A stretch of DNA of 13,843 nt from Promethearchaeota archaeon (lineage in GTDB: Archaea > Asgardarchaeota > Lokiarchaeia > Sigyniarchaeales > SOKP01). The notes below the pieces were generated by a model. It searched no databases and was not told where the DNA came from. It saw nothing but the letters and a program-made list of their open reading frames with translations. The stretch spans positions 1 through 13,843 of the forward strand of contig JAHLWH010000210.1 in NCBI GenBank assembly GCA_019058015.1, in the 5' to 3' direction. This document shows positions 1 to 13,843 of this stretch, one piece after another; within the stretch, counting starts at the first letter, position 1; each line of letters starts with the position of its first letter. The position numbers and the translations under genes are program-made.

Positions 1-2
1 TT

Positions 3-251
3 ATGAGCGATAACTATGATCTCGTGATACTTGATGAAATTGGAGTTGCTCTTGAAATGCATATAATCAAGATTGATGATGTAATGAACATAATTGAAAA
101 AAAACCTGAAAAACTTGAATTAATTTTAACCGGTGGCCAAAAAATACACCCAAAAATAAAGGAAAGAGAAGATCTCATAACTGAAATGAAGATGATAAAA
201 CATTATTTCTCAACAGATGGAATACAAGCCCGCCTTGGTATTGAATATTAA
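3..251 (+). CDS. cobO: Cob(I)alamin/cob(I)yrinic acid a,c-diamide adenosyltransferase (CobO/CobA/BtuR family), C-terminal part only; 5'-truncated by the window edge
   Basis: Motifs YDLVILDEI, ELILTG, DLITEM..IKHYF and ARLGIEY match the family's C-terminal half. The N-terminal P-loop half is missing, so the ATG at 3 is probably internal. Confidence 0.9.
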   Translation: MSDNYDLVILDEIGVALEMHIIKIDDVMNIIEKKPEKLELILTGGQKIHPKIKEREDLITEMKMIKHYFSTDGIQARLGIEY

Positions 252-271
252 AAATCTTACTAATTAACAAA

Positions 272-1447
272 ATGCCATATGATAAACATACCTATTTAAT
301 ATGGTTTTTAAGTTTCTCAATTATTCTAACTTCTTTTTTTTTGCTCCAAATTGGAAAATCACAAGCCATAAATATTTCTTTTTTTAATAACAACAATTAT
401 TTTCAATTTAATTCTACAAATGCATATAATATAATTGAATCCCAACTTAATTTTGGATTTCGAATTCCAGGAACTGAATCTAGTAAAAATTGTGGAGATT
501 ATTTTATTGAACACATGAATGCTATATCACCCACGCTTCCAATTTTTCAACATAATTTTAGTGTAAATACAATAAATTGTCGGAATTTTCTTATAACTAT
601 TAATCCCAATAATCCTCGCATAATAATCCTCGGAGCACATTATGATAGTAGAGCAATCTCTGAAAAAGATCCTACCGTAAATAAAAGAAATGAACCATGT
701 CCAGGAGCAAATGATGGAGCAAGTGGAGTTGCCACACTCTTGGAATTGAGTAGAATTTTCTATGAAAAAAGAGAATCCCTAAATTGTTCAGTATGGATTT
801 TGTTATTTGACGCTGAAGACCAAGGTAATGGAGCCTTGTCTGGTTGGGATTGGTGTGAAGGTTCAAAAAAATTTGTCGAAAATATTAACAATTATTATAA
901 TCCTGAAACCCAATCAATTGAAGCAATGATTTTGTTAGATATGGTTGGTGGAACAAATTTAGAATTTATTAATGAATTGAATTCGAATATGCTATTACTT
1001 GGTGAATTATTTGAAATTGGGAGATCTTTAGGATATTTAGATGCATTCCCTTCTAATCCGGTATCTAGCGCAATAACTGATGATCATTTACCTTTTAAAG
1101 AACTTGAAATACCAGTCGCTGATTTAATTATTAACTTTTGGAGTCCATCAAGTCCCTGGCCTTATCATCATACAACATCTGATAATATCACATATATTTC
1201 ACAAGAGAGTCTTGAAATAACAGGAAAAACAATTGAAAAATTTATATATAATCATTATTTAAACAGCCCCGAATATGAAAATGACTCAGGAAATTATCCT
1301 TGGAAAGATATCAATGGAAATCTCAGTTTAGATTTTATATATTATATTATTTTTTTTGTATTAATTGTTGGAATAGGAATTTCACTAATAATTATCAAAA
1401 AGAAAAATAAATTTCAAAAAACTAAGAATAAGATAAAATTGAAATAA
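272..1447 (+). CDS. Secreted, C-terminally membrane-anchored M28-family zinc enzyme, glutaminyl-peptide cyclotransferase (QC)-like
   Basis: M28 motifs GAHYDSR, GANDGASG, FDAED, LLDMVG, ITDDHLPF and YHHTTSD are present. The N-terminal hydrophobic stretch ends ...SQA. A C-terminal TM helix (FIYYIIFFVLIVGIGISLIII) is followed by a Lys-rich tail. Confidence 0.85.
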   Translation: MPYDKHTYLIWFLSFSIILTSFFLLQIGKSQAINISFFNNNNYFQFNSTNAYNIIESQLNFGFRIPGTESSKNCGDYFIEHMNAISPTLPIFQHNFSVNTINCRNFLITINPNNPRIIILGAHYDSRAISEKDPTVNKRNEPCPGANDGASGVATLLELSRIFYEKRESLNCSVWILLFDAEDQGNGALSGWDWCEGSKKFVENINNYYNPETQSIEAMILLDMVGGTNLEFINELNSNMLLLGELFEIGRSLGYLDAFPSNPVSSAITDDHLPFKELEIPVADLIINFWSPSSPWPYHHTTSDNITYISQESLEITGKTIEKFIYNHYLNSPEYENDSGNYPWKDINGNLSLDFIYYIIFFVLIVGIGISLIIIKKKNKFQKTKNKIKLK

Positions 1448-1539
1448 TTCTAATTATTATGATAAATTAAAATTGTATTTGTTATCCTTTAAATTCCAGA
1501 AATTAAATGTATATTTAGAATGAAATAATTGTTGAGATT

Positions 1540-2292
1540 ATGGAAAATAATAAAAAGATTTCCAACTCTGAAAACGGAGAATTGAAGAAAAAAAAGTTAT
1601 CTAAAAAAATCATAATTGGAATTATTATTATCGTAATTGGATTTGGAAGCCCTTTTATTATAACTTTTTTAATGCAAGCCATTCTTCAAACTCAACATCC
1701 ACTTGTAGTAGTAGTATCTGATTCTATGAATCCAGCAATTTATCGAGGCGATTTATTGATCTTGCAAGGAAAAAATCCCATAGACGTCGTAAATGGAACA
1801 ATCACGGGAAAAGAAGGTGATATAATTGTGTATGATGCACATGGGGTATGGGATGGATGGCCAAATGGTCAAGTTCCAGATGAACCAATAGTTCATAGGA
1901 TAGTAAATAAATGGTTTGATAATTCTACGGGAAAATGGATGTTTTATACTAAGGGAGATAATGATGTTACAAATACTAATATTGATCCACCTGATGGATA
2001 TTTTCAAGTTGATTATAAATATCCAGTTCCAGAAGATAAAATACTTGGAGTTGTTATTGGACGAATCCCTTCTATTGGTTATGTAAATATTTTCTTATCA
2101 GAAAATAATCTATTTCTATATCTAATAATCGGGATTCTTGGCACTTTATTAATAATTTCTGTTATATGGGATATTATAAACCCCGAAAAAGAGAAAGAGA
2201 AAGTAAAAGAGTCTAAACTTATAAAGAAAAAGGATAAGGAACGACAATTAACTTCTGAAAAAATTATAATTCAAGATGAATTTGAGGAATAG
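1540..2292 (+). CDS. sec11: Signal peptidase I, archaeal/ER type (S26B, Sec11-like)
   Basis: Catalytic Ser motif VVSDSMNP, RGDL, catalytic His motif IVHR and TKGDN...D. TM helices at both termini. Confidence 0.93.
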   Translation: MENNKKISNSENGELKKKKLSKKIIIGIIIIVIGFGSPFIITFLMQAILQTQHPLVVVVSDSMNPAIYRGDLLILQGKNPIDVVNGTITGKEGDIIVYDAHGVWDGWPNGQVPDEPIVHRIVNKWFDNSTGKWMFYTKGDNDVTNTNIDPPDGYFQVDYKYPVPEDKILGVVIGRIPSIGYVNIFLSENNLFLYLIIGILGTLLIISVIWDIINPEKEKEKVKESKLIKKKDKERQLTSEKIIIQDEFEE

Positions 2293-2463
2293 AACACTAA
2301 ATTTTTTCGAATTTTTTTAGATATATATAGTTCTAAAAGTAAAATTTTAAAATTATTATGCCTTTTTTGAATATAATGTTCTTTTGAACATTATTAATTG
2401 ATTAATAACAGAAAAATCTCTGCATACGCAGAATTTCTATTAAACAATAATACAAAAAGTTAA

Positions 2464-2470
2464 AGAGAGG
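2464..2470 (+). promoter_or_regulatory. Putative Shine-Dalgarno site for alba
   Basis: AGAGAGG ends 6 nt before the ATG at 2477. Confidence 0.5.
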
Positions 2471-2476
2471 TTTAAA

Positions 2477-2764
2477 ATGGCTAATGATCAATCCAATCAG
2501 AATAATGTGTTTGTTGGAAGACGCCCCACAATGAATTATGTAATGGCAACAATGATGGTACTTAACAGAGGCGATGAATGCACAGTAAAGGCACGAGGTA
2601 GAGCAATTTCTCATGCTGTAGATGTTTGCGAAATCCTTCGCAACCGATTTTTAAAGGGAACAGAATACGGAGATATTATCTTGGGCACAGAGGAATTAGA
2701 AGGTGAAGGTGGGCAAAAAAATAATGTAAGTTCCATTGAAATTACATTGAAACCACCAAAATAA
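2477..2764 (+). CDS. albA: DNA/RNA-binding chromatin protein Alba
   Basis: VFVGRRPTMNYV, VKARGRAISHAVDV and VSSIEITL are canonical Alba motifs; length 95 aa. Confidence 0.96.
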   Translation: MANDQSNQNNVFVGRRPTMNYVMATMMVLNRGDECTVKARGRAISHAVDVCEILRNRFLKGTEYGDIILGTEELEGEGGQKNNVSSIEITLKPPK

Positions 2765-2810
2765 AATATCTAAACTAGAAAACGTCGTTACATCGACAAT
2801 ACTTATCTAC

Positions 2811-2826
2811 TTTTTTTTTTTATTTT
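2811..2826 (+). terminator. Archaeal oligo-T intrinsic terminator after alba
   Basis: T11 run plus ATTTT about 46 nt after the stop codon. Confidence 0.6.
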
Positions 2827-2970
2827 CAATTAAAACAATTATCTATATTGAATCAGTTTGTGTTAGAAACTCTTTTTTTTCAAATAAGTTAAAGCATTTT
2901 TAACAAATAATAATTTTAAAATTCATTAGATTATTTCAAAAAATATTGCTTTAAAAGGATTTGAAAAATT

Positions 2971-4113
2971 ATGTTAGAAGAAAAATATAAAAAAGCCGCA
3001 AGAATAATTGTGAAAGCTGGATTTCTTCCTTTTCCAATTAGTGACACTTTACTTGAAATATTGAAGATATTAATTAATGAAAATGAATTGGATTTAATTT
3101 TTGCTTTTAAACGACAAGTTTCTCAAACTATGGAGCAATTAAAAAAGAGTAGTAAAATGAAAGAACAAGAAATAATAAAAAATATAGAATCTTTAGCCAA
3201 AAAGGGTTTAATTTTCGATCAACCAAGTTCTAGAGGTATTATGGTTTATAGATTACTACCTTTATTGAATGTTGGCGTTTTTGAATATACTTTTATGAAA
3301 AAGCTTGAATATTCAGAAAAGGAAAAGAAATTTGCACTCTTATTTGAGAAACTATTTAGTGAATATAAAGAGTTCGTTCAAGATAATTACGATGCAATTG
3401 AACCCTTTCTTCAGACCATGCCTCCTGTTGATCGTACAATTCCAATAGTAGAAAAAAATGTTGAAGGAAAAGATATTCAAATATTGATTAATGAAGAATT
3501 AGAAGTACCCACGGAAGAAGTTATCCTCGCCCAGAATGTTGCAGAAATTATTAACAAATTTGACGATATTGCAGTTGGACATTGCTATTGCCGACATCAT
3601 AAAGATTTACTGGGCGATTCATGCAAAATTAATGCACCGCGAGAGAATTGTTTCACTTTTGGAAAGTCAGCTAGATTTACTACTAAACAAGGTTTTGCTA
3701 GAATGGTTACAAAAGAAGAGGCATTAAAAATATTAAGGGAGGCTGAAGAAAATGGATTAGTACATAAAGCATTCCATCCACATTCAGATATATCTAAAGC
3801 TGAAACTTCAATCTGTAATTGTTGCACTTGCTGTTGTGAAACTTTTGATCAATTTAGGAAAGGTGCTTTGCCTATAATTAATGTAACCAATTACTTATCG
3901 TGTGTGAATCCTGATCAATGCACAGGTTGTGGAACATGCATAGAAAAGTGTCCCATTGGTGCAATGTCAAGAAATGATGATAATATTGCTGAAGTAAATG
4001 AGTCCAATTGTATTGGATGCGGAGTATGCGCTCATTTTTGCCCAGAAACAGCTATATCCTTGTTAGAAGGGAGAAGAACTGTTTATATCCCTCCTCCAAG
4101 ATTAAAATCTTAA
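2971..4113 (+). CDS. 4Fe-4S binding protein: N-terminal wHTH-like region, central Cys cluster and C-terminal 2x[4Fe-4S] ferredoxin domain
   Basis: Ferredoxin motifs CTGCGTCIEKCP and CIGCGVCAHFCP. Extra Cys motifs CYCRH..C..C and ICNCCTCCC, plus EAEENGLVH, typical of this anaerobe family. Confidence 0.88.
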   Translation: MLEEKYKKAARIIVKAGFLPFPISDTLLEILKILINENELDLIFAFKRQVSQTMEQLKKSSKMKEQEIIKNIESLAKKGLIFDQPSSRGIMVYRLLPLLNVGVFEYTFMKKLEYSEKEKKFALLFEKLFSEYKEFVQDNYDAIEPFLQTMPPVDRTIPIVEKNVEGKDIQILINEELEVPTEEVILAQNVAEIINKFDDIAVGHCYCRHHKDLLGDSCKINAPRENCFTFGKSARFTTKQGFARMVTKEEALKILREAEENGLVHKAFHPHSDISKAETSICNCCTCCCETFDQFRKGALPIINVTNYLSCVNPDQCTGCGTCIEKCPIGAMSRNDDNIAEVNESNCIGCGVCAHFCPETAISLLEGRRTVYIPPPRLKS

Positions 4114-4142
4114 TTTTTTTAAATTAATTTTTTTTTATTTTT
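4113..4142 (+). terminator. Oligo-T terminator after the 4Fe-4S gene
   Basis: T7, T9 and T5 runs immediately after the TAA. Confidence 0.55.
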
Positions 4143-4233
4143 AGGAGATGATATCTACAAATCCAATTATTTAAAATTTTACAGGTTGATTTTTCCTTCT
4201 AAAGATTATTATTTAGAAAGGAATCATATAAAA

Positions 4234-4593
4234 TTAATAAAATTGTGTTCTCAATTTAGATATTAATTGTCCCCGATCTAAGACTTGGATACCATTATTT
4301 TTTCCGTATTTTTCTGAAAATTCACTAGATTTACTACAAATCATAACTCCACCTTCAATATCTTCAACATCCTTACAAGCTTTGTGCAATTGACGGATCT
4401 GAGTTATTGAAATCTCTCGTTTCCAGTCTCGAATAAAGACTCCAAATTTTCCTCCATTGTCTAATATTAATGCATCAAATTTCCAAATTTTTTTTGATTT
4501 ACCTCGAAATGTTTGTTCTTCATCTATATATCGATAATTCGCAGAAAATAATGTTTTTGCTAATTCCCGCAGGTTTTTATCTATTAAATCCAA
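4234..4593 (-). CDS. Mrr_cat-like restriction-endonuclease-fold (PD-(D/E)XK) small protein, probably catalytically degenerate; TTG start
   Basis: Mrr-like layout: FRGKSKKIWKFDALI, GVFIRDWKREIS..QIRQL, GGVMIC, YGKNNGIQVLD...L. The expected (E/Q)xK motif is replaced by FIR. Confidence 0.75.
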   Translation of the reverse strand: MDLIDKNLRELAKTLFSANYRYIDEEQTFRGKSKKIWKFDALILDNGGKFGVFIRDWKREISITQIRQLHKACKDVEDIEGGVMICSKSSEFSEKYGKNNGIQVLDRGQLISKLRTQFY

Positions 4594-4636
4594 TTCACAT
4601 ACACATTTTTTTATTTTTTAATGTAATATTGAGATG

Positions 4637-4687
4637 GTATCTAAATCTAGACTATTTTTAAAAAATATTTAATATAATATAATATCT
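4637..4687 (-). repeat. Upstream conserved block, copy 1
   Basis: GTATCTAAATCTAGA at 4637-4651 is identical to 4986-5000. The 24-mer at 4664-4687 matches 5008-5031 at 20/24 positions and reads ...TATTAAATATT (TATA-like) on the minus strand. Confidence 0.8.
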
Positions 4688-4725
4688 ACACAGTATATGT
4701 ATTTTTGTCGGATTGCTATTTTTTA

Positions 4726-4935
4726 TTAATCTAACTTATTTAATGAATGATCTCTGTTATTTGAATCAATTTTGTTCAGATAATTTTCAAAAATATCATT
4801 AAAATCTTTTACTAAATTATTTGCTAAGACTTTACATCTATTAGAGAATTCAATTTTTTCTATATCTGTATCTCGATATCTCTCGATTGAAAGTATTTTT
4901 GCTAATTCTCTCAGATTTTTTTCTTTTATGTCCAA
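4726..4935 (-). CDS. Small 69-aa hypothetical protein whose N-terminus is paralogous to the adjacent Mrr-like protein; TTG start
   Basis: MDIKEKNLRELAKILSIERYRDTD aligns with MDLIDKNLRELAKTLFSANYRYID. The start context and upstream motifs are conserved. The C-terminal part is unrelated and looks helical. Confidence 0.6.
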   Translation of the reverse strand: MDIKEKNLRELAKILSIERYRDTDIEKIEFSNRCKVLANNLVKDFNDIFENYLNKIDSNNRDHSLNKLD

Positions 4936-4985
4936 TTTACATCAACAATTTACATTTTCTTTTTTTACAATATATTATTTAGAAA

Positions 4986-5031
4986 GTATCTAAATCTAGA
5001 TTAGTGGAATATTTAATACATTGTGATATCT
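4986..5031 (-). repeat. Upstream conserved block, copy 2
   Basis: Second copy of the 15-mer (349 bp from copy 1) and of the 24-mer. Confidence 0.8.
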
Positions 5032-5074
5032 GGGAATTATAAAAAAAGATAAAAAAAAGTTTAACCTTTATTGT

Positions 5075-5923
5075 TTAAAAAAAATCACTAATTTTTATTA
5101 GTGGATAATCTCCATTATTAGGGCTAAATTTTTCTAAATATAAATCCAAGATACTTCTAAAAAAAATTATTATATTATTTGCGACTACTTCACAAATATT
5201 GTTACAATCAAAGTAATTATTAGGAAGTAGGGGACATCTTGGATTAAAATTTTTACAATATTTTTTCATTTGGAGTGAAAATCCTTCTGCTCGAAGTATC
5301 TTAAAATAATTCCATGAGTCTTTGAATCCAGCAAACTCATAGGGCTTTAATTCTTGAAGTCTCTCTTTTAAAGATTTTTCATTGAATTTGAATTTTAAAC
5401 GGTGTTTTATTTTTTTCAATTCAATAACAAATTCTGCTTGGCTCCAATTACTATACACTTGGAGTAAAGCTTCGGCTTTTATAACCTTTTCAGGCGAAAT
5501 TATTTTCCAACCATCAGCTCTTTTACATTTAATATTTTTATTTTCAAAATTATCAAAATTGGTTGGGTAAATCCAACACTGAGGTGGTTTAAGATCTGTA
5601 GAATAGAGCTTACATCCATTAAGCTTTTTATCAAAAAATGCGCATTTTCCTGTTTTATCATCAATCCGTATTTGAAATGAAAAAACATCTCCTCTTATGA
5701 AATCTTTTTCAGTTCCCAATCCTTGACTTATAATTTCTTTAGCTAATATTTTTGGAATATCGATAAATATAGAGCAACAATCAGCATGGCAAATACTTGG
5801 ATCTGTACAATTTGGACCGGTTATTCCCTCTTCCATTAATTTATTATAATTCCTTATAATTTCTAATACATCTACTTTAAGGATATCTTGATTTTCTCCT
5901 CTGTATAACTCATCTACTTTCAA
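5075..5923 (-). CDS. YkgJ/UPF0153 (CxxCxxCC-type) cysteine-cluster protein, putative Fe-S or Zn binding; TTG start
   Basis: C...ICHADCC, CAFFD...GCKLY...KPPQCWIYP, plus additional C-terminal Cys residues (YCKNFNPRCP..DCNNIC). Confidence 0.78.
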   Translation of the reverse strand: MKVDELYRGENQDILKVDVLEIIRNYNKLMEEGITGPNCTDPSICHADCCSIFIDIPKILAKEIISQGLGTEKDFIRGDVFSFQIRIDDKTGKCAFFDKKLNGCKLYSTDLKPPQCWIYPTNFDNFENKNIKCKRADGWKIISPEKVIKAEALLQVYSNWSQAEFVIELKKIKHRLKFKFNEKSLKERLQELKPYEFAGFKDSWNYFKILRAEGFSLQMKKYCKNFNPRCPLLPNNYFDCNNICEVVANNIIIFFRSILDLYLEKFSPNNGDYPLIKISDFF

Positions 5924-6152
5924 ATTTTTTCATTTATTATGATAAAATAGGATTAAGCAAACACATAACAGTAATTTCTAATATCATTCAAAACGTGTCG
6001 AGATTATATTTATTTTGTTTTTTAAATTTAAAAAGGATTTATAAATTTATTAAAGAATTACTATAAATTATTTATTAAATAATTTATATTAAATCTATAA
6101 GTAATATTATACAATACCCCCAATTAATCAAAATTTTAAGGTATAATTATAA

Positions 6153-8315
6153 ATGAGGGATATAGAAATAAAAAAAAATTTATTAATCGTAATAGATATA
6201 ACCGAAAAAGAAAATGCCGTTCTTAATGATTTAGGAAATGTTAAGGAAATAAGTGGAAACGGCAAATTAATTATAAAAAATCCGTCTGATAAAAGTCGAT
6301 TGTGGAATATTACATGTGATCTAAAAGAAACGGTAAAAACTTCATTTTCTGCACGTGAAATAAAAATAGATACTCTAGACCCGTTAAAGGATTTTTCTTC
6401 CGATTATACAATTTCAAACATAAAAGAACCTCTTTTAACAATTGCTGAAAAATTCGATACTTTATCAGATTTTTCAGATCGTGAAAATAACACGTTTTTA
6501 TTTGCTCAAGACACTAAATGTCAGTTAAAAATCCATTTAACAAATCAAATAAGTGGAGATATTATCAATATTAAACTTATTAAAGAGATTCCTTCTATAC
6601 TTAAAGATATTGAACTCGTTCCACCTAATAATGGAACAGCTTCAATGAAAGAAGAAGAAGGTTCGAATAAAATATTTTGGGAATTAAACTCTTTAGGTGT
6701 TGGTCAATCGGCTGAATTAGTAGTAAATTGTATTGGATTAGCAAATTCCGTAGAAATGCAACCACTTGGAGAAATAAGAGCTACATATCTAGTAAACAAT
6801 AGAATATTAACAATGATTGATCCAGATATAGTTGCAATAACAGATTCGATGAGTGGAGTAACAAGGGATGAAGGTAGTAAACCAGGGGTATGGGATTGTA
6901 ATGTTGAATTTATTAATGAATCTGAATTTCAAATAAAGTTAAATGATGTAAGAGTAGAACATAATATTATTACAGGTAAAGAAATTGTAGTAGCCCAAGC
7001 ACCCGGAAAGATTTTAAACAGAGATCAAGCATGGGATTATGATTTCATTGTTGAATCTAAAGAAGTCCCTCAATTAGAACCAAGTTTCGAATTCACTACT
7101 TTATTTACAGCAATAAAAAGAGTTGAGGGAACTATATATAAAGAACCATTATATTATCCCGTTCTTCGGGCAGAAGTATCAAAAGAAATTAAACCAAATG
7201 AGGTAGGAGCTTATGCAAATACTGAAATGGAAATTGTTAACACTATTTTTAATAAAGGATCAGCTCAAATCGATAAATTACTGATTACAGATGAAATAAC
7301 CGAAGATTTTGAACCTCCAGACCTGAATTTAATTAAACTCTTTGCAAAAACTGGTGGAGAATTAAAAGAAATTTTCGGTAATGAATATGTTAAGGTATTT
7401 CAAATTACCCCGGATGATAAGGACTTAACAAAATCTCATAGAATAGAAATTGAACTATTTAATATGGCAAATGACTTATCATCAGATAGTACTTTAGAAA
7501 TATCATATCCAATAATTGCTAGAAATCCAAAACCTGATAAATCGTATCAAATTCCAATTACTGTTCAATTAAATACGAAAATTGAAGGAAAACCCTATAT
7601 TATTGCCCCAAGTGAAACACCGGAAATAAAAATTAAATATATTGCTAGAAAATTTAAGACTCTTAAAAGTATTAAGCCAGGTAGTGCAGCAGGGGAATTT
7701 ATTGTGAGTATTCAACTCCAAAATCAAGGAAATGTTGAATTGGAAAATATTCTAATTAAGGATAAAATTCCGGTAAATTTTGAATTGATAAGCTTTTCTC
7801 CAATGGAATTGAAATATGAGTTAAATAAGATTGAAAATGAATCTGAATTAGTTGTAAGAATTGTAGAGTTAAAAGCTGATACTGTATTGAAGATCGAATA
7901 TCAATGTTCTGGAATCGGTGAATACCCACGATATGAACCAGTAGTTATTGTTGAAGGAAGAAAAGACAATATTTCTAAGCCAGAAGAAAAGACTGAACCA
8001 ATAGTAAGTAGTACACCTGAATCATCAATAGGTTCATTTGCGGAAAGCTTATCATTCTCAATTAAATCACAAATTATTGATGAAATCATTAATCTTGAGA
8101 AAAAAATAACGCCTGGATTAAAATCAGTGGATGTTGCCAATATGATTGAAAAATTGAGAGACTTTATTGCTAATATTGCGAGAGTTGGCCCCTTTATTCA
8201 TGAAATTGGACAAATTGCAAGAGAGTTTAAAGATCTAGGAGAAAAAACCATTGTTGGTGAATCTCACGACAAAATTACCAAAAAAATCAAAGAATGGAAA
8301 GTGAAATTTTTTTAA
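6153..8315 (+). CDS. 720-aa cytoplasmic protein with multiple Ig-like beta-sandwich units, a mu-homology-domain-like N-terminus and a Vps28-CTD-like helical C-terminus
   Basis: Long ORF with no signal peptide or TM helix. A repeated motif N-x4-[IL]-x-[NK]-[IL]-x-[IL]-x-[DK]-x-I-[PT] occurs (HLTNQISGDIINIKLIKEIP, IFNKGSAQIDKLLITDEIT, LQNQGNVELENILIKDKIP). The ORF is solid; the domain names come from by-eye alignment. Confidence 0.7.
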   Translation: MRDIEIKKNLLIVIDITEKENAVLNDLGNVKEISGNGKLIIKNPSDKSRLWNITCDLKETVKTSFSAREIKIDTLDPLKDFSSDYTISNIKEPLLTIAEKFDTLSDFSDRENNTFLFAQDTKCQLKIHLTNQISGDIINIKLIKEIPSILKDIELVPPNNGTASMKEEEGSNKIFWELNSLGVGQSAELVVNCIGLANSVEMQPLGEIRATYLVNNRILTMIDPDIVAITDSMSGVTRDEGSKPGVWDCNVEFINESEFQIKLNDVRVEHNIITGKEIVVAQAPGKILNRDQAWDYDFIVESKEVPQLEPSFEFTTLFTAIKRVEGTIYKEPLYYPVLRAEVSKEIKPNEVGAYANTEMEIVNTIFNKGSAQIDKLLITDEITEDFEPPDLNLIKLFAKTGGELKEIFGNEYVKVFQITPDDKDLTKSHRIEIELFNMANDLSSDSTLEISYPIIARNPKPDKSYQIPITVQLNTKIEGKPYIIAPSETPEIKIKYIARKFKTLKSIKPGSAAGEFIVSIQLQNQGNVELENILIKDKIPVNFELISFSPMELKYELNKIENESELVVRIVELKADTVLKIEYQCSGIGEYPRYEPVVIVEGRKDNISKPEEKTEPIVSSTPESSIGSFAESLSFSIKSQIIDEIINLEKKITPGLKSVDVANMIEKLRDFIANIARVGPFIHEIGQIAREFKDLGEKTIVGESHDKITKKIKEWKVKFF

Positions 8316-8390
8316 AAATCTAATTCTTATATATCTATTTTTTTATTATTAATTGAAACGAAGTTATAGAAAGCACAGATTTATTGCTTT

Positions 8391-9527
8391 TTATTCATCA
8401 TCTGCTTTTGGAATTTTGGGAAGTGTCCTTCCAGAAACTTTAATTATTTTAGGTTTAGTTTGATTATCTTTAGTTGTTCCTAAAGTGTCTTTCTTTGCAC
8501 TCGATGTCTTTGGTGTAGCCTTTTTAGCTATTGTTTTAGTTGTGGGTTTTTTAGTTGGTGTTTTAGTGGTTGTTTTTTTAACTGATGTTTTAGTAGTTGT
8601 TTTTTTTACTGCTGTTCTGGTTGCTATCTTTTTAGCTCTTATTGGAGTCTTTTTATCTAAAGTTAGTATTTCAATCCCTTTTATTATTGCACGTTCCTCA
8701 TCAATATAAACCTTTATCTTATTGTTTTCTAGTTCAATTATTCCACTAGGAAATTTTTTAATTCTTTCCCACTCAGTATCCTCAACTTCTTTTCCAAGAA
8801 CTGAGGTTATCTTAGAGACCGCTCCATATAAATAATTTCCCATTATGATATTTTGCCGTTTATATCCAGCTGGAATATCATTTTTTAAAATTTCAATTAA
8901 AATTTTTTTAACTTGATCTTGAGAAAAAGACGATTTTTTAGTAGCGTATCTAGGACTTATACTTGACGGAGTTATCGGAATAGGTTTAGCTGTTACTTTT
9001 TTAGGTGCTCGAGGTATAATATCAAGAGAAACTAAAGTAGATTCCATTGCATTCCCATCAAAGCTACCTAAAGCCGGGGAATAATAATCTGTACTTTCTA
9101 TTTTTTTCGAAACTGGAGATGCATCCACGATTGTCCCCTGAATATTTCCATCTCTTTCTATATTTCTAATATATTTCATATCTGGTAATCTTTCAGTTAC
9201 TTCCATCGATTCTAGACCAAATACATTTAAAAACTCAACTAACTCATCCCCCTGATCAATAGATTTTATTATACATCTATGAAGTCCTGCTGACCTCATT
9301 AACTCGTTTTGCAGTCCTTGGGCAACTCGCGAAGAAATAAACCGCTTCCGAACTGGGGACTTAGAACCTTTCCAAATATAAATTCTCCTTATATCTTCCC
9401 TCACTATCACAAATACCCGGTTAGGATCTAAAATTGAGCCTAATTCTTCAGAAGATATATTCAGTTTATTTCTAGTTCCATCATCCAATAATTCAAAAGC
9501 CATAAATTCCTTGTATTCAATCATCAT
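8391..9527 (-). CDS. Gelsolin/villin-domain protein (Asgard actin-regulator type) with a second globular domain and a basic low-complexity tail
   Basis: LDPNRVFVIV...RIYIWKGSKSPVRKRFISSRVAQGL...IDQGDELVEFLNVFG is a typical gelsolin repeat (W-x-G and QG-x-E...F). Confidence 0.88.
   Translation of the reverse strand: MMIEYKEFMAFELLDDGTRNKLNISSEELGSILDPNRVFVIVREDIRRIYIWKGSKSPVRKRFISSRVAQGLQNELMRSAGLHRCIIKSIDQGDELVEFLNVFGLESMEVTERLPDMKYIRNIERDGNIQGTIVDASPVSKKIESTDYYSPALGSFDGNAMESTLVSLDIIPRAPKKVTAKPIPITPSSISPRYATKKSSFSQDQVKKILIEILKNDIPAGYKRQNIIMGNYLYGAVSKITSVLGKEVEDTEWERIKKFPSGIIELENNKIKVYIDEERAIIKGIEILTLDKKTPIRAKKIATRTAVKKTTTKTSVKKTTTKTPTKKPTTKTIAKKATPKTSSAKKDTLGTTKDNQTKPKIIKVSGRTLPKIPKADDE
8499..8633 (-). 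repeat. Five imperfect 27-bp (9-aa) tandem coding repeats, KKxxxKTxx
   Basis: KKIATRTAV / KKTTTKTSV / KKTTTKTPT / KKPTTKTIA / KKATPKTSS. Confidence 0.85.
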
Positions 9528-9883
9528 TCTTCTTTATACTTGTCTCAAATTAAAAATAACTTTCTTTATAACCTTATGATAAAATCTCTCTTATTTGAAT
9601 ATGTTTGTTTTTAATATTGCATAAATTTACAAAAACTAATATAATTATATAATATCTATATATATTTTTATCCCTCTTTATGTTTAGGATTAATGCAATG
9701 AGATAATAATGATCTATTCAAAAATAAATCAATAATAATAATTAAGCACTCGTCTAGCAAACAAAATGGGTTAATTTATTCAAAAGAATTAATACAAGTT
9801 TAACAATAATTATATAAATCTTTATTCTCATATTGTTATTAAATTAAATTAATTAATACAATTATTAAAAAGGTTTGAATAAA

Positions 9884-10567
9884 ATGGGAGCTAATTTTTG
9901 CCCAAGTTGTGGTGATCCTTTACAACCTGGTCAGAAGTTCTGTGAAAAATGTGGTGCTAAAACTGATGAGTCTGCACCAACACCTTCTCAAACTGAAAGT
10001 GTTACCAAACCCGCACCGAGTGGTGGTCTCTTCGACATTAACCGAAACTACTATGTCTTGAAAGAAAAATACTGGGATTGGGGATCTGGTGATATTCTTG
10101 ATGAAAAAGGGCAACCTATCGGAAGGATGCACCGTAAAATAATTTCACTTAGAAGAAAAGTTGAGCTTATGGAACTTGATGGAACTATCCAGGCAACAAT
10201 TCATGCTAAGATTGTTAGTGCAAGAGGAGCTCAAGATTTAAAAGATCCAGAGGGAAATATGATCGCCAGAATTAAAAAAGCATTTTTAAGTGTTTTTCGC
10301 CCTAAATTTTTCTTAGAATCTCCAGATGGAGAAAAATGGTATGAAGCCCAAGGAAAGTTTATGGGGTGGAGTTATAAAGTCAGAAATTTTAAAACTGGCG
10401 AGTTAGTTGCAGAAATCGAGAAAGCGGATAGGTGGAGGGACATTTTCTTAGGCGGTCTGTTCGATTTTAAAGATACATACGCCTTACGGATTCACGACAA
10501 TAAAACAGACAGGCGTATCTTGCTTGGATTCGTCTTAAGTATTGATAACGTTTTGCATGACAAATAA
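9884..10567 (+). CDS. Zinc-ribbon + LURP-one-related/Tubby C2/phospholipid-scramblase-fold protein (ATG 9884 preferred over TTG 9875)
   Basis: N-terminal FCPSCG...FCEKCG, then a Pro/Ser/Thr linker. Repeated D-x-x-G-x-x-[IV]-[AG]-x-[IM] beta-hairpins, G-x-F-x-x-W-x-Y, DTYAL and a terminal hydrophobic helix (RRILLGFVLSIDNVLH). Confidence 0.82.
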   Translation: MGANFCPSCGDPLQPGQKFCEKCGAKTDESAPTPSQTESVTKPAPSGGLFDINRNYYVLKEKYWDWGSGDILDEKGQPIGRMHRKIISLRRKVELMELDGTIQATIHAKIVSARGAQDLKDPEGNMIARIKKAFLSVFRPKFFLESPDGEKWYEAQGKFMGWSYKVRNFKTGELVAEIEKADRWRDIFLGGLFDFKDTYALRIHDNKTDRRILLGFVLSIDNVLHDK

Positions 10568-10580
10568 TCTTAAGAAATTC

Positions 10581-10602
10581 TTTTTTTTTTTAATTTTTTT
10601 TT
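10581..10602 (+). terminator. Oligo-T terminator after the LURP/scramblase-like gene
   Basis: T11-AA-T9 beginning 14 nt after the stop codon. Confidence 0.65.
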
Positions 10603-10704
10603 CTAAAACAGTGATAAAATTGGTCTCATTTTTGGGAATTCGATTTTACTAGAACTATTTATTCAAACCTAAAGTAATTATTGAAAGATATTTTATGTTA
10701 ATTA

Positions 10705-10720
10705 AAAAGATATTTATATG
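10705..10720 (+). promoter_or_regulatory. Putative BRE-TATA promoter for the pssA-like gene
   Basis: A purine run (AAAAGA) is followed by TTTATAT at 10713-10719, about 33 nt before the ATG at 10752. Confidence 0.45.
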
Positions 10721-10751
10721 AATAAGTAGAAATTATAATAGGTTTTTTACA

Positions 10752-11540
10752 ATGAGTATGATTCGTCTCTTAAAATTAAAGGATTACATCACTCTTTCAG
10801 GGACAATTTGTGGGATTTTTGCCTTAATGGTTGGAATTATAATTAACGATTTAGCAATGGGATTTTTTTTAATTATGATTTGTCAAGGGACAGATCTACT
10901 AGATGGTTATGTAGCTAGGAAACTGAAACAAAAAAATAAAATTGGAAAAGAGATAGATTCATTAAATGATTTATTTTGTTTTGGAGTTGTACCTGCAATG
11001 TTAATTTTTATTGGTTATTGTGATGATTTACCCTTTGAATTAATATTTTATATTCCAGCCGTTATTATTTTCATTTTGTGTGCCCTACTTAGATTAGCAA
11101 GATTTAATATTATGGATGCAAAGGGATATACAGGAATAGTATCTCCATTATCCTGTTTAATGGTGACCTTCTTTTTTTATATTGATTATTTTAGTATTCA
11201 AACTTTTGAAGAAAATAATTTTATTTCAATTTGGGTTCAATTACTATTTCCATTTTTATTAGGATTTTTGGGCTACTTAAATATTACAACTTTTATTATA
11301 TATGGTGAAGAGATAAAGAAAAAGTCTGGAAACTTAAAATATGTCTTTATTGTCGGAGGCATTCTCACAATCGTAATCGGTATAATTGGACTAACTTTTC
11401 CAAAACAGTTAGCGGCGTTACCGATCTTGTCTTTATTTATATTTGTCTTTGCTTTAGGATGGGGTTATATTTGTCTTGGATTTAAAAATTATCTAAATTC
11501 AAGAAAGAATATAAAAAAGGAACTTAATTCAACTAATTAA
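10752..11540 (+). CDS. pssA: CDP-alcohol phosphatidyltransferase, PssA-like (probable archaetidylserine/phosphatidylserine synthase)
   Basis: Family signature DLLDGYVARK...GKEIDSLND, followed by FGVVPA, LRLARFN and YTGI as in subclass II PssA. Multiple TM helices. Confidence 0.8.
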   Translation: MSMIRLLKLKDYITLSGTICGIFALMVGIIINDLAMGFFLIMICQGTDLLDGYVARKLKQKNKIGKEIDSLNDLFCFGVVPAMLIFIGYCDDLPFELIFYIPAVIIFILCALLRLARFNIMDAKGYTGIVSPLSCLMVTFFFYIDYFSIQTFEENNFISIWVQLLFPFLLGFLGYLNITTFIIYGEEIKKKSGNLKYVFIVGGILTIVIGIIGLTFPKQLAALPILSLFIFVFALGWGYICLGFKNYLNSRKNIKKELNSTN

Positions 11541-11555
11541 TATTTATGAAAAAAC

Positions 11556-13049
11556 TTAATTTTTTAATCTTTCAATCCAATTTTTGATTCGACTTTGCAG
11601 TAATTTTTGTAGATCCTCATCAAGCTTTCCTTTATTTTTGAGATCTGTTATCCAGCGTCGAATATCATTTAAAACAACAGAGAAGCCTTTATTTTCAAGA
11701 ATATAGTCATTTAATTCTTCTAAATGTTTTGCAATTTCACTTCCATTTTTCGTATCTAATTCTTCCAAAATTGCGATAAATCGAGAGCCAATCTCAGTAA
11801 TCTCTCCTTCTAGAATTCCACTTTTAAGAATTTCATCTTTAATAGATTTCAATGGTACTTTTTCTTCCTTTTTACCAGCATCTTTAATAAGTTTTTCCTT
11901 CTCTTCAATAAACGATGAAACTTTATCGATCTCTTCACCTACCGGTTCTTTTTTTTCATGAATTTCTTGGGTTGGAAGTGTAATCTCTATTTTTTCAATT
12001 TTTTCTACGATTTTAATTGGCATTTGTTTTGTTTTTTCAAGTAGAAATTGGAATGCTTGATTATTTTGGTGAAGTGGAGAAGACATAAAATTAAAGACGT
12101 TTGCTAATAATTCAAATATTTTTTGACTAAGAGATTCATCGAAAATGGCAAACTTTTCCTCTTCTTTTTCTAAGACCATTTTAAAAGTTTTCTCTTGATC
12201 ATTAACAGTTTGTTCATATTCGTAAATTAAATCAAATAAACTCATTCGAATCTCATTTTCAATTTTCTCAACTTGAGAGGATATTTCATTAATATTTTGC
12301 TGTAAGATCTCTGAATTTTTTGTAAAAATATCAGGTAATTTTTCATTGTAACTTTCTTTAATTTTATTAATTTTATTATCAATAATTTTATCTACTAATA
12401 ATTTTATATCGTTCTGCTTTTTTTTAAGATTAAATTCTTCGAGATTTTCCATAATTTCTTGCTTTATATTCTCGATTTGTTTTACAAAATTTTGAAAATG
12501 TAAATTGAAAACGTTCTCTACCATTTCATAAAATTTACCGGTATTGCTTAGTAATAGATTTAATTCAGGAATTAATGAAACTCCATCTTCATAATCCGCT
12601 TTTATTAAACTTAAATTTCCTATAATTGTGGTTTTTGCTTCTTGAAAATTCTTAATATAATTTTTTAAATTTAATAAAAATCCAGATTCTTCTTTAATCT
12701 CATTAAAAATTTTGGATATTTTATCAGGTAATTCATTTGCCATTTGATTTGATTTAGCATCAAATTTCTTATAATAAGTTATAAATGCACGATATGGGGG
12801 TATAGCATAATAATAGGGTGTAATTTCCTTGGAAGATTCTAAGTTAGAAATACACAACCCTTTAGTTAAAAGCTCTTCGATTAAATTTTTATTTAATTCT
12901 TCATTTGTAGTTTCTGTAATTGATGAGATTTCTTCCATTGTTAATGGGGATCTCCCAATAATTTTTAAATAAAGGTCAAGACTATCATGTGAGAGATCTA
13001 ATTCATTTAATAATTGAGTTAAAAAATCTTTATCATTATTATTTGCCAT
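11556..13049 (-). CDS. TrmB-like wHTH + long coiled-coil/helical region + Vps28-CTD-like C-terminal domain (ATG 13049; alternative TTG 13055)
   Basis: The N-terminus LDLS...LYLKII...LTMEEIS...LIEELLTKGL...YYYAIPP is TrmB-wHTH-like. About 250 aa of heptad-like E/K/L/I helix follows, then a charged linker and a terminal helical domain. Confidence 0.72.
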   Translation of the reverse strand: MANNNDKDFLTQLLNELDLSHDSLDLYLKIIGRSPLTMEEISSITETTNEELNKNLIEELLTKGLCISNLESSKEITPYYYAIPPYRAFITYYKKFDAKSNQMANELPDKISKIFNEIKEESGFLLNLKNYIKNFQEAKTTIIGNLSLIKADYEDGVSLIPELNLLLSNTGKFYEMVENVFNLHFQNFVKQIENIKQEIMENLEEFNLKKKQNDIKLLVDKIIDNKINKIKESYNEKLPDIFTKNSEILQQNINEISSQVEKIENEIRMSLFDLIYEYEQTVNDQEKTFKMVLEKEEEKFAIFDESLSQKIFELLANVFNFMSSPLHQNNQAFQFLLEKTKQMPIKIVEKIEKIEITLPTQEIHEKKEPVGEEIDKVSSFIEEKEKLIKDAGKKEEKVPLKSIKDEILKSGILEGEITEIGSRFIAILEELDTKNGSEIAKHLEELNDYILENKGFSVVLNDIRRWITDLKNKGKLDEDLQKLLQSRIKNWIERLKN

Positions 13050-13210
13050 AATCAAGCACTATTAGTGAGTAATGATTTTTATAATATTTGATTTGATTTT
13101 ATATATTTGTTTGTAGTGTTGATTAATAGTTCTAAAATTATATAAATTCTAAGATTCTTATAAAATAATATAAAAAAAGATATAAGTTAAAAATGTGAGT
13201 ATTGGTAATA

Positions 13211-13843
13211 ATGGATATTGATGAAATATCAATTGGAACTGAAGCAACTTTCCTTCCACCTTTTGAAAATGGCATTAAGACGGTAAAAAGACTTGAAGAA
13301 ACTGGGTATGCTTCTTTATGGTGGGCAGACCACTTGATGGGTTGGATACCCGAATCTATCTGGACTCCAGATATTATTAATGTAGCAGCTTATCAGAAAA
13401 CACCCCACTTCTTCTTTGAAGCTTATACTACGATTGCCGTTGCGGCTTGGAATACCGAAAGAGTAAAATTGGGCACATCTGTTACTGAAACTTTTAGGAG
13501 ACATCCTGCTGTACTTGCACAGTCCTTTTTAACTTTAGATCATCTCTCTAAAGGCAGAGTAATTCTTGGTATCGGAGCTGGTGAAGGTGAAAACGTTATT
13601 CCATATGGAATTGAATGGAATAAACCGGTGAGTAGATTGGAAGAAGCGATTACAATTATTAAGCTTCTTTGGAAAAATGATAAAAAAGTGGATTTCGATG
13701 GAAATTTCTGGAAACTAAAAGATGCAATTCTTGCAAGGGGTGCATATAAAGATTGGTAATATCATGAAAACTGGATTGGGGCACACAGCCCTAAAATGCT
13801 TGAATTAGAAGGAAAAATAAGAGATATCTACTTCCCTTCAAAA
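13211..13843 (+). CDS. Luciferase-like monooxygenase (LLM) class oxidoreductase, probably F420-dependent; in-frame TAA at 13757-13759 and 3'-truncated by the window (sequence error or pseudogene)
   Basis: GYASLWWADHL, TERVKLGTSVT, RHPAVLAQ..TLDHLSKGRVILGIGAGE are LLM motifs. Homology continues in frame after the stop (WIGAHSPKMLEL). Confidence 0.85.

Follow-up and report, generated by a model that had tools for sequence, protein, structure and literature searches.

Clathrin adaptors, COPI and the muniscins bind cargo and partners through mu-homology domains (MHDs). In muniscins and stonins the MHD works outside the adaptor protein (AP) tetramer and lies at the C-terminus of the chain, after F-BAR or disordered regions. 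DUF11 proteins, known from bacteria and archaea, are typically secreted or exposed at the cell surface. Here we describe P0001, a 720-residue product encoded in a 13,843-nucleotide window of DNA from a Promethearchaeota archaeon (GenBank assembly GCA_019058015.1, contig JAHLWH010000210.1, positions 1 to 13,843, forward strand; "the window" below means this whole stretch). A first-pass annotation of the DNA had likened the N-terminus of P0001 to the MHD of AP mu and delta-COP subunits; the span that it flagged, 6174-6830, corresponds to residues 8-226. We conclude, with a probability of roughly 0.55, that P0001 is a soluble, cytoplasmic multi-domain scaffold with an N-terminal MHD homologue and DUF11-like sandwiches, acting as a stand-alone adaptor.

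Asgard proteins of this kind have been catalogued before. Supplementary Table 3 of Eme et al. (2023; Nature 618:992, PMC10307638) lists Asgard Adap_comp_sub (PF00928) proteins as candidate eukaryotic signature proteins. Within rows 2-21 of the 44 PF00928 rows, several candidates carry the family motifs KN.S...R.WN and W.C..EF.N.SEF, as judged by eye against our consensus, and a 705-residue Lokiarchaeales protein looks orthologous by eye, not by alignment. A 15-residue motif from the latter is absent from the homologue set collected here. The presence of the family motifs among these proteins bears out the earlier suggestion that the family may be partly known: P0001 is one more orthologue of a family already catalogued in 2023, and the gene itself is no discovery. 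In those rows the proteins are listed by Pfam hit, and neither the architecture of core and C-terminal module nor a function is described. Asgard fusions of Vps28 or Vps23 parts with adaptin-like domains are known from a preprint (Liu et al., 2020) and from a later survey (Makarova et al., 2024); these multidomain proteins combine Vps28-C or a steadiness box with adaptin-appendage, longin or immunoglobulin (Ig)-like domains. The portions of both papers considered here, with part of the supplements of the latter, do not mention the MHD family, and the portion considered of a 2026 structural-clustering preprint names subunits of AP and COPI but is silent on the MHD. A literature search returned no further paper linking Asgard archaea with the mu-homology domain.

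The N-terminal region resembles a mu-homology domain

An AlphaFold2 model of residues 1-235 only, built on a 44-row alignment, has a mean predicted local distance difference test score (pLDDT) of 83.4 and a predicted template modelling score (pTM) of 0.76, and pLDDT falls below 50 at residues 1-9 only. The model contains six strands at residues 13-102, seven at residues 120-214 and one more at residues 225-230. These form two predicted sandwiches, subdomain B being inserted in subdomain A, and the whole is superposable on solved MHDs. When the model was compared with the PDB by Foldseek, 40 of 40 among the matches listed were MHD entries of AP mu subunits or delta-COP (best E 3.7e-9; query-normalised template modelling (TM) scores of about 0.5-0.64 over about 205-260 columns, at 11-16% identity). 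VIA-align, which is independent of Foldseek and covered 48,161 representative chains, gave MHDs nine of its 12 best places (ranks 1-8 and rank 11). Eight different MHD families were matched across both subdomains, and all of them rank above any single-sandwich match. Model residue 10 is aligned to mu2 residue 171 in many rows, and the aligned range reaches model residue 235, which corresponds to mu2 residue 413. By the mu2 subdomain limits that we assume, this point lies beyond the end of subdomain B, so the return segment that follows the insertion is matched as well. Residues T230/S232/S234/G235 of this segment are invariant among near orthologues. Beyond the modelled region, residues ~236-260 hold the invariant stretch P244-G245-x-W247-x-C249.

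Family profiles recover the same relationship in homologues of P0001. At E <= 1, PF00928, which has a curated cut-off of 31.6 bits, is found in 9 of 44 near homologues (lowest E 3.7e-9). In six near homologues scanned singly the match falls on residues ~50-216 against profile positions ~70-227 of 259, and P0092 (36.7 bits) is the only one of the six above the cut-off. Of 24 distant representatives, taken from a search of 1.84 billion proteins, eight match, three of which pass the cut-off (P0147, 40.9 bits; P0175, 40.7 bits; P0122, 34.9 bits). Some of the matches stretch into subdomain A (positions 12-236, 18-233 and 69-227 of the profile); the widest, that of P0147, spans positions 12-236 of 259 and covers part of subdomain A. 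A family profile enriched for the N-terminal region was also searched against all PDB sequences, hits being listed at E <= 10. It returned 30 hits, 27 of which are adaptor proteins, including AP-3 mu (E 0.0012), AP-2 mu (E about 0.12-0.25), AP-1 mu and the gamma-adaptin ear. Searches of the PDB sequences with P0001 alone, with the full-length profile or with P0147 alone returned nothing relevant.

The first-pass annotation had drawn its MHD from two sequence patterns. The subdomain B pattern, found in P0001 as QLKIHLTN...NIKLIKEIP...NGTAS...KIFWELNSLGVGQSAEL...PLGEIRATY at residues 124-212, holds up: HMMER aligns positions 135-228 of the family profile with AP-3 mu (E 0.0012) in the same register, that is, IP / G / W-x-I / final strand. 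The start pattern is present as the string NLLIVIDITEKENAVLNDLGNVKEISGNGKLII at residues 9-41. Its register is the one chosen by HMMER when a paralogous subfamily is aligned with mu2, although at -2.7 bits this stretch carries no statistical weight. Counted at equal spacing from the aligned start, D15 and K42 would fall at mu2 residues 176 and 203; we take mu2 D176 and K203 to be sites in strands 1 and 3. D15 and K42 are kept in 113 and 117, respectively, of 120 near orthologues. Across the superfamily the conserved residues are G37, N43, W51, Y85, E99, N131, K144, G161, W176 and G206, which are core-like.

Taken with the PF00928 and PDB profile matches in homologues, the two structure comparisons confirm that the N-terminus is MHD-like. 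The finding that would have spoken against it, best matches to generic, independent Ig folds, was made by half: DUF11 matches do fall on subdomain B in distant homologues, but the two-sandwich arrangement fits MHDs clearly better than independent Ig folds. The predicted model thus gives good support to residues ~10-235 as an MHD homologue, in which a subdomain A sandwich carries a DUF11-like subdomain B as an insert.

Domain organization of P0001

P0001 is supported as a soluble, signal-less protein that is cytoplasmic by prediction. Its hydropathy maximum (19-residue Kyte-Doolittle mean) is 1.07, no segment is membrane-like, and a hydrophobic N-terminus was found in none of 120 near homologues and in 1 of 96 distant full-length homologues, in agreement with the earlier remark that an export signal is lacking. 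A longin domain is absent before the MHD; the first strand starts at residue 13, and orthologues start at the same place.

Features of the MHD-protein gene and its conserved neighbours (positions in the window; residues of P0001)
Feature	Position	Residues	Strand	Remarks
MHD-protein gene	6153..8315		+	720 aa plus stop; protein P0001; open reading frame (ORF) translation
MHD subdomain A, first part	6180..6476	~10-108	+	six predicted strands; conserved G37, N43, W51, Y85, E99
MHD subdomain B	6477..6818	~109-222	+	seven predicted strands; DUF11-like; aligns to subdomain B of AP-3 and AP-2 mu
Return segment after subdomain B	6819..6857	~223-235	+	strand 225-230
Domain 2, presumed beta-sandwich	6858..7172	~236-340	+	boundaries by sequence; hhalign to domain 4, 22.5%
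Domain 3, presumed beta-sandwich	7173..7637	~341-495	+	boundaries by sequence; hhalign to domain 4, 48.5%
Domain 4, DUF11-type Ig-like sandwich	7638..7961	~496-603	+	Pfam DUF11 match
Low-complexity linker rich in S, T, P, E	7962..8045	~604-631	+	unconserved in alignment consensus
C-terminal module, ~90 residues	8046..8312	~632-720	+	helical by sequence pattern; in Lokiarchaeia-type orthologues
282-aa CxxCxxCC protein	5075..5923		-	divergent from MHD gene; PF03692-like, 22.4 bits (cut-off 23)
119-aa protein, weak Mrr_cat-like match	4234..4593		-	second conserved neighbour

The sole domain found by a Pfam scan of P0001 is DUF11 (PF01345) at residues 513-556, with 25.1 bits against a cut-off of 24.6; TIGR01451 scores 22.9 bits, slightly below its cut-off of 24. 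DUF11 matches occur in all 44 homologues. Three further beta-sandwich units had been noted after the MHD. The last of them is indeed a DUF11 domain, and domains 3 and 2 are tied to it weakly, domain 3 the better of the two by hhalign; domain 3 also has weak CARDB matches in two homologues. No pairing of subdomain A with the other domains exceeds 3.1% probability in hhalign. In distant members one and the same stretch of subdomain B scores above the cut-offs of DUF11 and of PF00928, and by its sequence subdomain B looks like a DUF11-type sandwich that opens a tandem series. Domain 4 has AP3B1_C matches in 25 of the 44 homologues (best E 0.0026) and a match to the gamma-adaptin ear (E 0.0068 with a broad profile; E 0.68, as top hit, with a profile of domain 4 only). 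These adaptin-ear-like signals are faint and serve as leads only.

The C-terminal module and the ESCRT-I question

The first-pass annotation had seen an ESCRT-I-like domain fused to the adaptor part. This is not supported by our searches, in which the Pfam VPS28 model matched neither P0001 nor its 44 homologues. Run over the window's own genome and 61 genomes of the class, the VPS28 model did not pick up the MHD family, and nearly all of its hits belong to the ~215-residue Vps28 and to a family of ~795 residues. Alignment of the module by hhalign gave 1.9% against Vps28-C and 0.9% against the ~795-residue family, in an insensitive test whose positive control reached only 10.8%; it set the end of the module in register with the ends of Vps28-C and of the ~795-residue Vps28_C protein, without significance. 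An iterated hidden Markov model (HMM) of the module, searched in the window's own genome, converged without reaching Vps28. An ESM Atlas search with the module gave no usable hit, and BLASTP against the neighbouring 499-residue protein gave E 0.79. As most matches in other Asgard families end without it, the module looks like an addition specific to one lineage.

The only sequence added by the iterated HMM is a 190-residue ORF (G000:C239:25687-26256, minus strand), which is matched through its C-terminal part with E 0.0026 and later 2e-8, the latter value obtained once the ORF itself was in the HMM. This suggests that the ORF and the C-terminus of P0001 may share a small helical module. The same genome encodes a 215-residue Vps28 and a frame of ~795 residues (around G000:C121 19529-19801, minus strand, locus L083) whose C-terminus passes the VPS28 model with 25.6 bits. 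By eye this frame has winged-helix-like repeats, and its middle is beta-rich; the type, of ~790-830 residues, recurs in many genomes of the class and is comparable to the multidomain proteins with Vps28-C in Makarova et al. (2024).

Distribution and homologues

P0001 has 186 homologues at E <= 1e-3, and a search of 1.84 billion proteins resolves the family into 297 clusters at 50% identity. The names of the homologues place the gene among Asgard archaea (Promethearchaeota; Lokiarchaeia-type metagenome-assembled genomes). A core of ~590 residues is matched in 120 of 151 sampled Asgard genomes. Outside the genome's own family and its sister family the best matches are mostly frames of ~580-630 residues, which follow the profile up to position ~540-605 only; in most other Asgard families the match ends near position 594 and the module is apparently absent. 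Ten distant clusters are named as Thorarchaeota only, and the relatives of P0220 are Njordarchaeales. ESM Atlas labels the nearest clusters "DUF11 domain-containing protein", and its match of 0.85 to a Thermoplasmatota cluster with DUF11 and SAP is a lead only.

A paralogous Asgard subfamily (P0147, P0175, P0148 and relatives) has an N-terminal extension of ~100-250 residues before the MHD and is without the C-terminal helical module; the extension gave a non-significant match to the F-BAR protein PSTPIP1 (E 0.46). Orthologue matches in several genomes (G073, G083, G143 and others) hold one to three in-frame stop codons (TAA, TAG or TGA).

Genomic neighbourhood

The window is AT-rich, with a G+C content of about 25-33%, and the MHD gene is a single copy in its own genome, which is 94% complete. 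Among the window's other ORFs only two accompany the MHD gene across orthologous loci, the 282-residue CxxCxxCC protein (72 of 80 loci) and the 119-residue Mrr_cat-like protein (68 of 80). Both are placed divergently upstream of the MHD gene, at loci of Lokiarchaeia type. No neighbour is common to more than 8 of 20 distant loci. Genes of longin or large-subunit type do not adjoin the MHD gene at any of the 80 near or 20 distant loci. The conserved neighbours are confined to the genome's own family, so the context yields no general functional clue. PADLOC defence-system models matched neither P0001 nor its two conserved neighbours. Rfam and tRNA scans of the whole window found nothing, and a scan for bacterial-type promoters and terminators gave signals no higher than in shuffled sequence. 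The sequence occurs in DNA runs of sediment, cold-seep and vent metagenomes, which belong to 8 studies; as to expression, the 22 runs listed for the sequence include no RNA run.

Several other genes were observed around the MHD gene. At 8 of the 20 distant loci (L114-L117, L120, L122, L127 and L133) a gene of ~230 residues is found 68-158 nucleotides upstream on the same strand, the only recurrent neighbour at these distant loci; its product has an HxHxDH motif and looks metallo-beta-lactamase-like by eye. In the window itself, residues 26-106 of a 378-residue protein (8391-9527, minus strand) match the solved Asgard gelsolin-like domain 7c2f_B with E 1.2e-5; this protein has a long K/T-rich basic tail and is found at only 3 of the 80 orthologous loci. 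A 230-residue protein (9875-10567, plus strand) combines an N-terminal zinc ribbon with a LURP-one-related/scramblase-type domain (PF04525, E 2.3e-8), which we take to be a family of tubby-like fold that is otherwise mostly eukaryotic. The 499-residue protein (11556-13055, minus strand) has only weak matches, such as a TrmB-type winged helix at its N-terminus (E 0.019), and the rest, which falls in no assigned family, is K/E-rich and looks helical by eye.

Proposed role and alternative explanations

We infer an adaptor or coat-like function for P0001. The predicted chain runs from subdomain A into the inserted DUF11-like subdomain B and back to A. It appears to continue through another two or three sandwiches of DUF11-like type, of which the final one is clearly DUF11; Lokiarchaeia-type genomes add a flexible linker and the ~90-residue C-terminal module, helical by sequence pattern. 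The protein would most likely be a stand-alone MHD adaptor in the manner of muniscins and stonins. The sandwich surfaces may offer binding sites for partner proteins or short motifs, perhaps at a membrane; the C-terminal module could dock the protein onto other machinery. Because the MHD starts at the N-terminus without a longin domain, P0001 is probably not the medium subunit of an AP/COPI-like tetramer.

A number of observations weigh against the stand-alone adaptor. P0001 itself has no PF00928 match at E <= 1, and a PF00928 search of its own genome was also empty. Identity to known MHDs is 8-16%, at a root-mean-square deviation of about 4 A and a TM score of about 0.6. Most alignments stop at mu2 residue 413 of 435 and a few at 424, the construct ending at residue 235, and the last ~22 mu2 residues have no counterpart in this 235-residue construct in most rows; full nesting and a tyrosine-motif pocket are for this reason no more than putative. 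The last mu2 strands presumably complete subdomain A and carry the pocket residues W421 and R423. D15 and K42 are kept in only 14 and 20, respectively, of 96 distant representatives. Since these two positions are poorly kept there and the residues conserved across the superfamily are core-like, the tyrosine-motif pocket appears, on sequence grounds, to be no feature of the family as a whole. In distant members subdomain B can equally be read as an ordinary DUF11 repeat, and it aligns with domain 4 (hhalign probability 66.6%, E 5.4e-5, 70 columns). Neither of the two conserved neighbours occurs at any of the 20 distant loci, which belong to other Asgard families. The adaptin-type genes to be considered as partners are likewise doubtful. 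In the own genome a sigma-like frame scores 18.6 bits with PF01217 against a cut-off of 22.5 and holds an in-frame TGA, the PF01602 (Adaptin_N) hits are HEAT-repeat proteins, with 3 of 14 control genomes hit as well, and the appendage families PF02883 and PF09066 gave no hit in this 94% complete genome, controls being equally silent.

P0001 could accordingly be read as a generic cytoplasmic DUF11/Ig-repeat protein, unrelated to coats or adaptors, with its MHD look due to convergence or model bias. The DUF11 matches in every homologue, their position directly over subdomain B in distant members, the kinship of subdomain B with domain 4, the naming of the nearest ESM Atlas clusters and the missing PF00928 match of P0001 are all as expected of such a protein. 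We nevertheless consider it unlikely, for the eight MHD families matched across both subdomains rank above every single-sandwich match, PF00928 takes in part of subdomain A as well in some members, and the PDB sequence hits are nearly all adaptins, not pilins or other DUF11-like folds. An ESCRT-linked adaptor, in which the C-terminal module is a bundle akin to the Vps28 C-domain, though divergent, and tethers the MHD protein to ESCRT-II, seems to us quite improbable. It would accord with other Asgard proteins in which Vps28-C is joined to adaptin-appendage or Ig-like domains (Liu et al., 2020; Makarova et al., 2024), and with the register, short of significance, between the ends of the module and Vps28-C. 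Against these stand the silence of the VPS28 model on P0001 and its 44 homologues and its choice of other proteins in the 61 genomes, the low hhalign values, an iterated HMM that converges short of Vps28, and the apparent absence of the module from orthologues in most Asgard families outside the own and sister genome families. That P0001 is a genuine counterpart of the medium subunit in an archaeal AP/COPI-like coat complex, with its longin part and large subunits encoded in separate genes, we hold to be very unlikely. The HEAT-repeat proteins matching Adaptin_N and the weak sigma-like frame in its genome are in favour of such a coat, as is the PF00928 listing of Eme et al. (2023), in the rows considered. 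The sigma-like hit is, however, below cut-off and interrupted, the Adaptin_N model is not specific in control genomes, the appendage families were not found (in controls either), and genes of partner type do not lie next to the MHD gene at the near or distant loci.

The DUF11-like insert may bear on the origin of the fold. With subdomain B above both cut-offs in distant members and related to domain 4, and with the faint ear signals of domain 4, a descent of the eukaryotic MHD, and perhaps of the adaptin-ear Ig-like sandwiches too, from a cytoplasmic archaeal DUF11 array is conceivable, if doubtful in our estimation. If it were true, the Asgard family would preserve the origin of the MHD as an Asgard-wide proto-adaptor of ~590 residues, to which the Lokiarchaeia added a docking helix module.

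Comparison with known systems

An archaeal MHD homologue bears on the rise of vesicle-coat machinery before eukaryotes. New here are three points: what is conserved is a core of four domains and ~590 residues, which has no signal sequence and is found in the majority of the Asgard genomes sampled, this core is without a longin domain, and its subdomain B is DUF11-like. They should ease an experimental approach to the family.

In the mu subunits of AP-1 to AP-4 and in delta-COP a longin domain precedes the MHD and the chain ends after it, whereas P0001 has no longin domain and continues with Ig-like domains and a putative helical module. The putative equivalents of the mu tyrosine pocket are not conserved across the superfamily, and the construct has no match for the last ~22 residues of mu2. 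Unlike muniscins (FCHo1/2, SGIP1, Syp1) and stonins, P0001 has its MHD at the N-terminus, with DUF11-like sandwiches after it. It resembles DUF11 (PF01345/TIGR01451) repeat proteins in that domain 4 passes the Pfam cut-off and subdomain B is DUF11-like; it differs from typical members in that the Asgard family is without a signal peptide and the first repeat is nested in another sandwich. With the Vps28-C multidomain proteins, as they are described in the portions of the two surveys considered here, P0001 shares Ig- or adaptin-like sandwiches followed by a small, apparently helical C-terminal module, but its module is not recognised as Vps28-C in any test run.

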